A stretch of 6,364 nucleotides of DNA from a virus (Duplodnaviria > Heunggongvirae > Uroviricota > Caudoviricetes): the IMG/VR virus record IMGVR_UViG_2713896780_000023. The stretch is one strand, 5' to 3'. A program made the translations under genes and the position numbers. Within the stretch, counting starts at the first letter, position 1, and each line of letters starts with the position of its first letter. Below, one piece after another: positions 1-5,724 of the stretch. The notes under the pieces are model-generated. The model saw only the letters and a list, made by a program, of their open reading frames with translations. It did not search any database and was not told where the DNA came from.

Positions 1-743
1 ATCAGGCTGTCGTAATGCGCGTCATTGTGGATGTGCTGGCGCAGCCAGGCTTCATCGTGGCGATGTTCGATAATGGTATTGGCGATATGGTGACTGGTAC
101 GCATACCGTTAGTGGCCATCACCGACAGTACGGCATCGGCCATCAGGGAAACGCCTACGTGTGGATCGCAAAACACCTGGCTGATACCTGCCAGTTGTCC
201 CTGGACCTTTGCCACATCCAGCGTGGTTCCGCCTAAATCCACAATCAGCAGGGATTCAAACGGACTCATGTCAGCCAGTGCTTTAAAACCAGCCGGAATG
301 GATTCAGGCATAACCCGTACGTTACGGATAGTGAATGCTTTTCCGTTCTGGTACGCCACCGGGCGCATGACGTTTGCTTTTTTGCGGTTGATGTTGGCCA
401 TGTCCGGCTGTGCGTTTGTGTCGAAATATTCGCTCAGTGGCAGGGTGACAACCACATCCACTTCCTGTGGTGTGATGCCTGATTTGACCAGCGCGTGATG
501 AATGGCAATGACATTCACATCGCTGTACTGGTATTGCGTGTCGGTCGTCTGGACAAAGCGATCGCTGACCGGATCAAAACCATAGCGCACGCCATCAAGC
601 ATGTAGTTTGCGGGCTGCGTGCCACCGAACGGCGCAGACCATTCCGACTTGAAGCTGTTCGGGCTGATGGCGTTGCGGCGTTCGCCGTTCTCAGTCCATG
701 CCAGCTTGATGTTGGTGGAGCCGTCGTCGATACAAATTTTCAT
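1..743 (-). CDS. parM: ParM/StbA-like actin-family plasmid segregation ATPase; N-terminal ~247 aa, 3' end runs off the left edge of the window
   Basis: Reverse-strand ATG at 743..741 preceded by AAGGA 8 nt upstream; open to position 1. Translation begins MKICIDDGSTNIKLAWTENGERRNAISPNSFK and contains QYSDVNVIAIHHAL, VMPESIPAGF and LLIVDLGGTTLDV, which match from memory the phosphate-1, connect and phosphate-2 regions of plasmid R1 ParM (FIDDGSTNIKL, SPNSFK, VMPESIPAG, LLIIDLGGTTLD). Not in the supplied ORF track because it has no in-window stop. Confidence 0.8.
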   Translation of the reverse strand, partial: MKICIDDGSTNIKLAWTENGERRNAISPNSFKSEWSAPFGGTQPANYMLDGVRYGFDPVSDRFVQTTDTQYQYSDVNVIAIHHALVKSGITPQEVDVVVTLPLSEYFDTNAQPDMANINRKKANVMRPVAYQNGKAFTIRNVRVMPESIPAGFKALADMSPFESLLIVDLGGTTLDVAKVQGQLAGISQVFCDPHVGVSLMADAVLSVMATNGMRTSHHIANTIIEHRHDEAWLRQHIHNDAHYDSL

Positions 744-3648: not shown

Positions 3649-4014
3649 TTACTTCGTCATGCCATTCAGGGTGTCGCGGCAGACTGTAGCCAGCCGCTGA
3701 ATTTCCAGCACGGTGTCTTCTGTGTCGGCATGGCGATGTGTGATGCGGATGCTGTCGGCAATCACATCGACGATTGCAGAGGATGGGCGCTGGTAAATGC
3801 CAATAACGGACGGGGTGCCACCTTCAATGCGGGAAAGCCTGTAATTTCCCTCGTGGCTGTCAATCATGTAGCGACCATCAATAACAATCTTTCCGTCAGC
3901 GAGCTGCGGTACAGGCAGGGATTTCAGGTACATGTCATAACGATCACGCACGCGAGCGGCAAGATCACGCTCTGTGTTGAGCAGGTATTCAAGAAAGTCG
4001 TTGGCGAGAATCAT
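3649..4014 (-). CDS. Hypothetical protein, 121 aa, no recognised family; may extend to ATG 4203 (184 aa) through the masked block
   Basis: ATG at 4014..4012 preceded by AAGAGGA 8-9 nt upstream; TAA stop at 3651..3649, 6 nt before the rep ATG. The ORF track joins it in-frame to an ATG at 4203 across the 50-nt N run, but that continuity cannot be verified. Confidence 0.5.
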   Translation of the reverse strand: MILANDFLEYLLNTERDLAARVRDRYDMYLKSLPVPQLADGKIVIDGRYMIDSHEGNYRLSRIEGGTPSVIGIYQRPSSAIVDVIADSIRITHRHADTEDTVLEIQRLATVCRDTLNGMTK

Positions 4015-4083
4015 TGCGGCAATCCTCTTGTTACAGATGTGCGAAGGCCTCCCGCCGCAAGGTGCAGGAAAGGCCCGGAACAG

Positions 4084-4133
4084 NNNNNNNNNNNNNNNNN
4101 NNNNNNNNNNNNNNNNNNNNNNNNNNNNNNNNN
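4084..4133. other. N-masked block (50 nt), sequence unknown
   Basis: Run of n characters in the input. Confidence 1.
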
Positions 4134-4203
4134 GTCTGCGGTTGATTTCAGTCTGGATGTGACGACGCTCCGCGATAGCGCGGTGCTGTTTGCGGTCTGC
4201 CAT

Positions 4204-4358
4204 GGTGTGGCCTCTTTGCTCGGTGATAGAAATAACTCACCATCCAGAGTTGAGAATCTCGGGGTGGCGAGACGTACAGGGTTCTCAACACCGGAGAGCA
4301 AAGAATCCGGCCCGACCGAAGTCGGCCCCGTACGCCCCGCCATAATTCTGACGCGAAA
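4204..4358 (-). ncRNA. Candidate structured leader / small RNA region (minus-strand sense) between the two masked blocks
   Basis: Minus-strand hairpins read directly. (a) GGCCGAC-UUCG-GUCGG(G)CC at about 4311-4329, a GC-rich stem closed by a cUUCGg tetraloop. (b) Nested stem GUUGAGAA / UUCUCAAC (4248-4255 with 4281-4288) enclosing inner stem UCUCG-CCACCC-CGAGA (4256-4271). (c) GGUGA-N10-UCACC at about 4221-4240. (d) CCGGA-N10-UCCGG at about 4290-4309. No ORF with a complete, verifiable reading frame lies in this stretch. Boundaries are unknown because both ends are masked. Confidence 0.25.
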
Positions 4359-4409
4359 NNNNNNNNNNNNNNNNNNNNNNNNNNNNNNNNNNNNNNNNNN
4401 NNNNNNNNN
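4359..4409. other. N-masked block (51 nt), sequence unknown
   Basis: Run of n characters in the input. Confidence 1.
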
Positions 4410-4434
4410 TTTTGTGTGTGCATGTTCTGGTTTC

Positions 4435-4734
4435 TTACTGGTTCAGAAAAAAATCAAAAACGTTATCGATGCGTTGCAGCAGCTCTTGCTGCATTGCTTC
4501 CGGCGTTTCCGGTTCGCCAGGTGCCCCCAGCGTTGCGCAGAAATCAGCGATTTCATGATGGAGCGTGAGGCGAATGGCTGGAGCAGTGGTTCTGGCGTGC
4601 TCCAGCTGATCCAGCAGTGCCAGCACAGCAGACGGCGAGAGCATTGCGCGAAATGCCAGTAATTTTTGAGGCGTTGCCATTCGTTGCAGGGCAAATGCCA
4701 GTTCGCGTAGCTTCTGGTGGTTGATGGTGCTCAT
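4435..4734 (-). CDS. Hypothetical protein, 99 aa, no recognised family
   Basis: ATG at 4734..4732 overlaps the TGA stop of the upstream ORF (ATGA junction); AAGGAAG 7 nt upstream; TAA stop at 4437..4435. Protein looks acidic and helical. Confidence 0.55.
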   Translation of the reverse strand: MSTINHQKLRELAFALQRMATPQKLLAFRAMLSPSAVLALLDQLEHARTTAPAIRLTLHHEIADFCATLGAPGEPETPEAMQQELLQRIDNVFDFFLNQ

Positions 4735-5631: not shown

Positions 5632-5724
5632 TTTTGTATCTCCGTTATTTGCGTGTGCGAATACCTCCGTTAATACGGATGGTTTTCACGTTTTCTTATT
5701 TAATTTGATGCTTTATTTGTATCG

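Follow-up and report, generated by a model that had tools for sequence, protein, structure and literature searches.

Genomic setting and true size of the gap

The window, that is, the whole stretch of 6,364 nucleotides that was analysed (IMG/VR record IMGVR_UViG_2713896780_000023), carries all of its genes on the minus strand. Unmasked copies with 100% identity were retrieved from E. coli chromosomes by megablast, and a match to the window was found in 1280 of 5426 complete E. coli genomes, i.e. about one quarter. In the matching records the window corresponds to the early operon of a P2-family prophage. The order of the operon is integrase, HTH repressor, Cox-like protein, several small ORFs, a MarR-like protein and a 99-aa ORF, followed by the gap under study, a 121-aa ORF, a 940-aa replication endonuclease and ParM. 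The nearest named phages were P88 and other members of Xuanwuvirus (Peduoviridae), which displayed 91-92% identity across the whole gap.

As had been described previously, the gap lies in an otherwise tightly packed operon, where it separates two minus-strand ORFs. The 99-aa ORF (4435-4734) forms its upstream flank, and the 121-aa ORF (3649-4014; phrog_3237, function unassigned) is the next gene of the operon, preceding the replication endonuclease. The claim that all other junctions measure 0-25 nt was inexact, as gaps of 77 nt (743-819) and 93 nt (5632-5724) are also present. No RNA feature was annotated at the gap in the RefSeq/GenBank records inspected, and a tRNA/tmRNA scan gave no match.

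Two runs of N are found at 4084-4133 (50 N) and 4359-4409 (51 N), as the preliminary description had noted. Alignment to the identical copy L001 revealed that the first stands for 164 nt and the second for 142 nt, so that the earlier figure of about 100 hidden nucleotides was wrong. Since the N blocks are placeholders for longer stretches, the true gap between the flanking ORFs is 625 nt and not 420 nt, composed of 322 non-coding nucleotides, a CDS of 231 nt and a further 72 non-coding nucleotides. On the minus strand, the block at 4359..4409 (L001 4834-4975) contains a promoter, an IsrK-like RNA, its terminator and most of the spacer that leads to a C4-type RNA. The last 11 nt of this spacer are visible at 4348..4358 (minus) and form the 5' leader of the C4 precursor. 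The block at 4084-4133 (minus) hides the 3' part of a 76-codon gene, including the stop codon. Two ORFs of 110 and 184 aa that had been listed over the region were discarded, as they exist only by read-through of the N blocks.

Two minor features were observed at the end of the early operon of this integrated P2-family prophage. The genes found there (window 1-742, minus strand; L001 1-1104) encode a plasmid segregation ATPase of the ParM type and a partition/stability protein, a hint of either a plasmid-like phase or descent from a phage-plasmid. Within or beside the 77-nt gap that separates the stop of the replication endonuclease from the start of ParM, a 43-nt direct repeat was detected (772-814 and 845-887, 81% identical). 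Each copy contains the hairpin ACGGGATT-N4-AATCCCGT, and the repeat may be a parC-like centromere or a terminator.

An epsilon-like gene in the gap

The apparent lack of a complete ORF was found to be an artefact of masking. In L001, the ATG at 4203 opens a CDS of 76 codons (4084..4203 in the window, minus strand; L001 4448-4678; WP_000775058.1). The Shine-Dalgarno sequence AAAGAGG (4211-4217) and the ATG at 4203, both recognized earlier, are thus real and correspond to the start of a RefSeq-annotated CDS. Unmasking therefore revealed a protein-coding gene, yet one that does not run across the hairpins.

In some records the product is named 'derepression protein'. The 76-aa protein matched the Pfam family PF25738 ('Derepression protein family') with 32.5 bits, the threshold being 27, and BLASTP against P4 epsilon gave an E value of 6e-9 with 32% identity over 50 residues. 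When a profile of five relatives was aligned with P4 epsilon by hhalign, a probability of 96% over 65 columns was obtained. The open frame was kept at 75-89 aa in diverged homologues. No family for the protein was found in NCBIfam, and a sequence search of the PDB yielded no relative. In P4, the epsilon (E) protein functions as an antirepressor and binds the C repressor of P2 (PMC2995052). On the basis of remote homology, at 29-32% identity, the 76-aa protein is predicted to be an antirepressor as well. The resident 134-aa HTH repressor of the prophage had no PDB relative at E 0.01 or better, and it could therefore not be matched to the solved P2 C repressor (PMC2995052).

Just past the hidden stop codon, a GC-rich two-tier hairpin with no U run is located at 4045-4076 (minus). 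The two-tier stem of the preliminary description is thus present and GC-rich, but it is separate from the C4 element and belongs after the stop codon of the epsilon-like gene. The 69-nt stretch 4015-4083 folded with -24 kcal/mol (z -0.67), a value that does not reach significance by folding energy alone. In diverged epsilon-like genes this position is taken by a hairpin whose sequence differs.

A C4-type antisense RNA upstream of the gene

A scan of the window with all Rfam families, the covariance-model search that had been suggested, resulted in a single match, the C4 antisense RNA (RF01695). The match scored 78.5 bits against a threshold of 45 (E 1e-14) and covered the full length of the model (positions 1-87). 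The family takes its name from the c4 RNA of phages P1 and P7. The element at the locus is 88 nt long (4260..4347, minus). Its outer stem of 17 bp (4326-4342 with 4265-4281, minus) encloses two hairpins and is followed by an ACC tail. The first inner hairpin (4312-4325, minus; C4 positions 23-36) bears the UUCG loop and is the cUUCGg stem-loop reported before, and hairpin 2 (4290-4311, minus) bears the b' loop.

The hairpins proved to be non-random, and their core is the Rfam C4 match. The unmasked 155 nt folded with -65.4 kcal/mol, compared with -50.4 ± 4.3 kcal/mol for dinucleotide shuffles (z -3.47), and none of the 200 shuffles was as good. In a pattern scan of viral contigs, 112 unique cassettes were collected, with 82 unique C4 sequences and 67 box combinations. 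The stems found strong covariation support in this sample. When the Rfam structure was imposed on the 82 C4 sequences, 99.4% of the cells were paired and 16 pairs had changed on both sides. Such changes affected 11 of the 17 pairs of the outer stem and all five pairs of hairpin 1; helix 3 (hairpin 2) and the GGGG/CCC pairs (three G-C pairs) were fixed by the search pattern and are uninformative for covariation. Slid controls reached 32-48% pairing, and 0 of 500 shuffles equalled the observed value, a control that is inflated by the many related sequences in the sample. Almost no variation was seen in the AU|GG junction at the 5' end or in the NCC(A/C) tail that follows the acceptor-like stem.

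The ATG at 4343, which opens a long minus-strand frame, raises the question of translation. It would imply an 'orf45'-like frame starting from the conserved AUGG at the C4 5' end, and a translated orf45 does lie downstream of IsrK in Gifsy-1 (PMC4825925). This ATG has no Shine-Dalgarno sequence, however, and its frame stays open only via read-through of the N blocks. Moreover, the stem substitutions are compensatory on both sides, as expected from selection at the RNA level, and translation of the hairpin region appears highly improbable.

An alternative partner for the 3' strand of the C4 outer stem (CUCGCCACC) is GGAUGGUGAG, located just 3' of it (window 4220-4281, minus); this pairing generates a hairpin with box a2 in its loop. 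The same alternative helix was observed in L003, L009, L011 and others, and it covaries among cassettes (GCUAUCGCC/GGCGAUAGC in P4, GCUACCACC/GGUGGUAGC in N15). This suggests a possible structural switch in the unprocessed transcript.

An additional promoter-like site at the C4 5' end (TTGCCA-N17-AATTAT), which overlaps the visible 11 nt of the spacer, was rejected because its -35 element is not conserved in P88 and L010.

The IsrK-like RNA and the linkage of the tandem to the gene

In the unmasked copy, a 75-nt match to Rfam isrK (RF01394) was detected upstream of C4, with 58.4 bits against a threshold of 50. This IsrK/seqA-like RNA lies inside the N block at 4359..4409 (minus) and contains two boxes, a1 (ATTCTCAAC), which is exposed in a hairpin loop, and b1 (AGAGCAAAG). 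It ends, within the same block (minus), in an intrinsic terminator with a 6-bp stem (AACCGCGCAAGCGGTT + U7). A sigma-70-like promoter (TTGCCA-N18-TACATT) is predicted in this block on the minus strand, ending about 7 nt before IsrK, and related modules keep the promoter-like site at the corresponding position.

The Rfam scan was extended to ten sources, namely L001, P88, a Citrobacter Xuanwuvirus, two Stx/lambdoid phages, mEp460, a Salmonella phage, a Yersinia phage, N15 and P4, and the tandem of isrK followed by C4 was obtained in all ten. The two matches in P4 are its known seqA and CI elements. In addition, the Rfam model 'a1, b1 targets of C4' (RF03163, c4-a1b1) overlaps the isrK match of P4. 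Both RNA motifs were catalogued in 2010 (PMC2864571). Among the options considered in the preliminary description, a processed immunity or antisense RNA was of the right type, the locus holding a full-length C4 that matches the same Rfam model as P4 CI.

A full-length ryfA match (134.6 bits) was also observed in the Yersinia phage vB_YpM_39 (L008, 149-447), about 1 kb upstream of its IsrK-C4 tandem.

The association of C4 with the epsilon-like gene was evaluated from the protein side. A total of 83 loci were chosen by the protein alone; a scan of genome contigs gave three loci. Each of the 83 loci, all of them with proteins at least 88% identical, had a single same-strand match to C4, located 56-59 nt before the start codon. 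At the locus, no Icd/Kil-like ORF was found between C4 and the 76-codon gene, whereas one was present in 59 of the 112 cassettes. The ORFs that come first after C4 in these 59 cassettes form one family, of which the first ORFs of N15 and P4 are also members.

This family speaks for considering the RNA as the antitoxin of a type I-like toxin-antitoxin pair with the 76-aa protein as toxin. The equivalent genes, P1 icd and P4 kil, are toxic. At the locus, however, the first ORF encodes an epsilon-like protein and not an Icd/Kil-like peptide, and the only recognisable relatives of this protein are antirepressors. The RNA antitoxin proposed earlier is therefore unsupported here, as the Icd/Kil-like ORF is absent between C4 and the gene, and we give this reading very little credence.

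Recognition boxes and their predicted pairing

The b' box (AUUCUUUGCUCU; 4295..4306, minus) forms the 12-nt loop of hairpin 2 and is complementary to b2 and b1. The a' box (GUUGAGAA; 4282..4289, minus) occupies an 8-nt single-stranded junction and is complementary to a2 and a1. The a2 target box (AUUCUCAAC; 4249..4257, minus) begins 3 nt past the C4 3' end, a position that is constant in 97% of the specificity types. The b2 target box (GAGCAAAGA; 4213-4221, or 4211..4221 with the Shine-Dalgarno part, minus) extends into the Shine-Dalgarno sequence (AAGAGG), 7 nt before the ATG. The a1 and b1 boxes in IsrK are repeats of a2 and b2, and b1 is placed 6 nt before the terminator. Predicted duplex energies were -17.8 kcal/mol for b':b2, -10.3 for a':a2, -12.5 for b':b1 and -15.3 for a':a1.

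In order to quantify the matching, an exact complement of at least 7 nt was used as criterion over 67 loop specificities. Within the own locus, matches were obtained for a2 in 97%, b2 in 81%, a1 in 99% and b1 in 76% of the types. Across loci these values dropped to 1.4%, 2.4%, 5.2% and 9.5%, respectively. Own-pair duplexes ranged from -22 to -33 kcal/mol, while cross pairs were mostly between -8 and -23 kcal/mol, and in an 8 x 8 matrix of duplex energies the own pair was the strongest in nearly every row.

The three box sets vary together across more than 100 related cassettes, on a constant scaffold. On a near-identical P88-type backbone, 18 C4 sequences with about a dozen box combinations were found, each combination being matched at three places. 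On this backbone the six boxes had a mean pairwise mismatch of 0.33, as opposed to 0.07 for the remaining non-coding columns and 0.04 for the CDS. The assortment of the a boxes is independent of that of the b boxes. Such matched and localised variation is the pattern expected of RNA-RNA specificity determinants, as in the heteroimmune phages P1 and P7 (PMC12197685). 

In the C4 sample, no full box pair was common to epsilon76-type and P4-type cassettes, and cross-immunity directed against satellites was rejected on this basis. Two viral contigs (L104 and L046) were each observed to bear two separate C4 cassettes with differing box sets.

When the unprocessed leader was folded, b' paired in cis with b2 and a' with a2 in the minimum free energy structure, which buries the Shine-Dalgarno sequence. 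The C4 boxes are thus joined to their targets already before processing, as would be the case if the segment were a cis-acting leader only, sequestering the ribosome binding site and releasing no stable trans-acting RNA. The full-length Gifsy-1 transcript is likewise translationally silent by itself (PMC4825925). However, sequestration in cis would not require the conservation and covariation seen in the tRNA-like outer stem and NCC tail, and the hypervariable yet matched boxes suggest specificity in trans. Stable processed species are moreover described for P1, P4 and Gifsy-1 (STnc1160) (PMC4825925, PMC3632133). A purely cis-acting element is consequently judged improbable. The cis-regulatory leader put forward in the preliminary description was partly correct as well, since C4 does lie within the leader of the gene opened by the ATG at 4203.

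The location of b2 also bears on the level at which C4 would act. Its overlap with the Shine-Dalgarno sequence, which holds in most specificity types (81% with a match of at least 7 nt), points to translational control, and a search for a terminator from a2/b2 to the ATG found none. Both observations argue against C4 being mainly a transcription termination factor of the P4 type, acting via a1/b1 at the IsrK terminator and via a2/b2, and stopping transcription before the epsilon-like and replication genes. On the other side, seqA and CI of P4 match the isrK and C4 models of Rfam in this order, the terminator that follows b1 is a strong one, and the cassette is placed just upstream of replication genes, as in P4, for which this mechanism is summarised in PMC4825925 and PMC3632133. 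Termination as the main mode of action is possible but on balance unlikely, and it would be compatible with a translational block.

Comparison with known systems and proposed mechanism

The evidence considered here comes from sequence comparison and comprises the RNA family, its structure, the complementarity of the boxes, the co-variation of this complementarity, the gene link and protein homology. It indicates that the gap is very probably an RNA immunity cassette of the P1 c4 / P4 cI / Gifsy-1 IsrK type, together with a gene under its control.

The immI region of P1/P7 (c4 - icd - ant) shares with the window the RF01695 element, the pairing of a'/b' with a2/b2, the b2 box on the ribosome binding site of the next gene and an upstream a1/b1 copy (PMC12197685). 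It also has an antirepressor as output, with differences in the boxes accounting for heteroimmunity (PMC12197685). In P1, c4 blocks translation of the antirepressor at the ribosome binding site (PMC12197685). In contrast to P1/P7, C4 is followed in the window directly by the antirepressor homologue, and an icd-like ORF between them is lacking. This homologue belongs to the P4 epsilon family and not to the P1 Ant family, and its host is an integrated P2-family prophage and not a plasmid prophage.

The P4 arrangement (seqA - CI RNA - seqC) contains the two Rfam elements in the order found in the window, and an epsilon homologue follows, with replication genes further downstream. IsrK-C4 constitutes the immunity system of P4 (PMC3632133). 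Unlike in the window, CI and epsilon of P4 are about 245 nt apart, with a Kil/Icd-like ORF in this interval. Its CI is described as a termination factor, and P4 is a satellite whose epsilon acts on the C repressor of the helper. The two epsilon proteins share only 29-32% identity, and the ORFs that follow them are unrelated. P4 ORF151 was considered as a relative of the 121-aa ORF, and no similarity was found.

The Gifsy-1 locus (isrK - orf45 (STnc1160) - anrP) resembles the window in having its own promoter and a terminated IsrK with read-through (PMC4825925). It is of the same type in its stable processed downstream RNA, its antirepressor output and the pairing of IsrK with a downstream segment (PMC4825925). 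It differs in the activating role of IsrK and in the coupling of translation through orf45, whereas in the window b2 lies directly on the Shine-Dalgarno sequence of the antirepressor homologue. Furthermore, the host of the Gifsy-1 system is a lambdoid prophage, while that of the window is P2-like.

The anti-immunity locus of N15 (upstream of genes 32-30; L009) also bears an IsrK and C4 tandem with matched boxes. Its a' box (GUUGAGAA) is identical to that of the window, while the b boxes differ. The downstream genes are not those of the window, the Icd-like gp32 being the first.

By analogy with these systems, the following mechanism is proposed. The conserved promoter would give rise to a short terminated IsrK/seqA-like RNA, and transcripts reading past the IsrK terminator would carry C4. 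This RNA would pair with a2/b2, either in cis or, once its tRNA-like end has been processed by RNase P, in trans. Pairing would block ribosome entry and keep the antirepressor off in the lysogen, and by polarity the block may also lower expression of the 121-aa gene and the replication endonuclease. IsrK, as a copy of the target, may titrate C4 (activation, as in Gifsy-1) or offer a second site for termination (as P4 seqA). The sequences of the boxes would fix a private specificity, i.e. the heteroimmunity type.

Of all steps in this scheme, that of IsrK is the least certain, as the Gifsy-1 and P4 versions both fit the layout. In Gifsy-1, IsrK pairs with the downstream segment, activates translation and controls the antirepressor (PMC4825925). 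In P4, immunity requires its equivalent seqA, and CI has been described as a termination factor (PMC3632133, PMC4825925). The precedents thus disagree, IsrK being an activator in one and required for immunity in the other.

Significance of the cassette

The element belongs to well-described RNA families, and the cassette of the window therefore represents one more case of a system already known. It is modestly new in two respects. The first is that the cassette is coupled directly to a P4-epsilon-like gene within a P2-family phage; no paper was found in the literature on Xuanwuvirus/P88 in combination with 'derepression protein' or antisense RNA. The second is the very sharp localisation of the box variation on a constant backbone.

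The cassette accounts for a seemingly empty stretch in a prophage carried by about one quarter of the complete E. coli genomes. It places an RNA switch of the P1/P4 type and a putative epsilon-like antirepressor in a P2-family phage, just upstream of the replication genes, and the gene that would be locked in P88-like prophages is a homologue of the protein with which P4 derepresses its helper. The box variants, matched three ways, constitute a natural specificity set for studying recognition by RNA locks. Their variation may also help to explain avoidance and exploitation among co-resident P2-like prophages and satellites.

A more speculative view, which we regard as rather doubtful, is that the cassette serves as a weapon or shield between rival elements under diversifying selection. 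In that case, the epsilon-like protein would derepress its own phage or a rival P2-family prophage, while the RNA key of each lineage would keep its own epsilon-like protein silent. The front end of P4, made up of immunity plus epsilon, would then share its origin with the cassette of the helper family.

Distribution of the cassette

The cassette is an accessory element, and the Xuanwuvirus phage 520873 was found to be devoid of IsrK, C4 and the epsilon-like gene. In this phage (L132, 1775-1915), approximately the last 40 nt of the epsilon-like gene are kept together with the following hairpin. This remnant points to a putative deletion or recombination joint inside the gene. This enterobacterial prophage cassette, with a protein 88% identical, was also observed in a contig labelled as the Gram-positive Vagococcus sp. 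WN89Y (L135), which is probably a case of assembly contamination.
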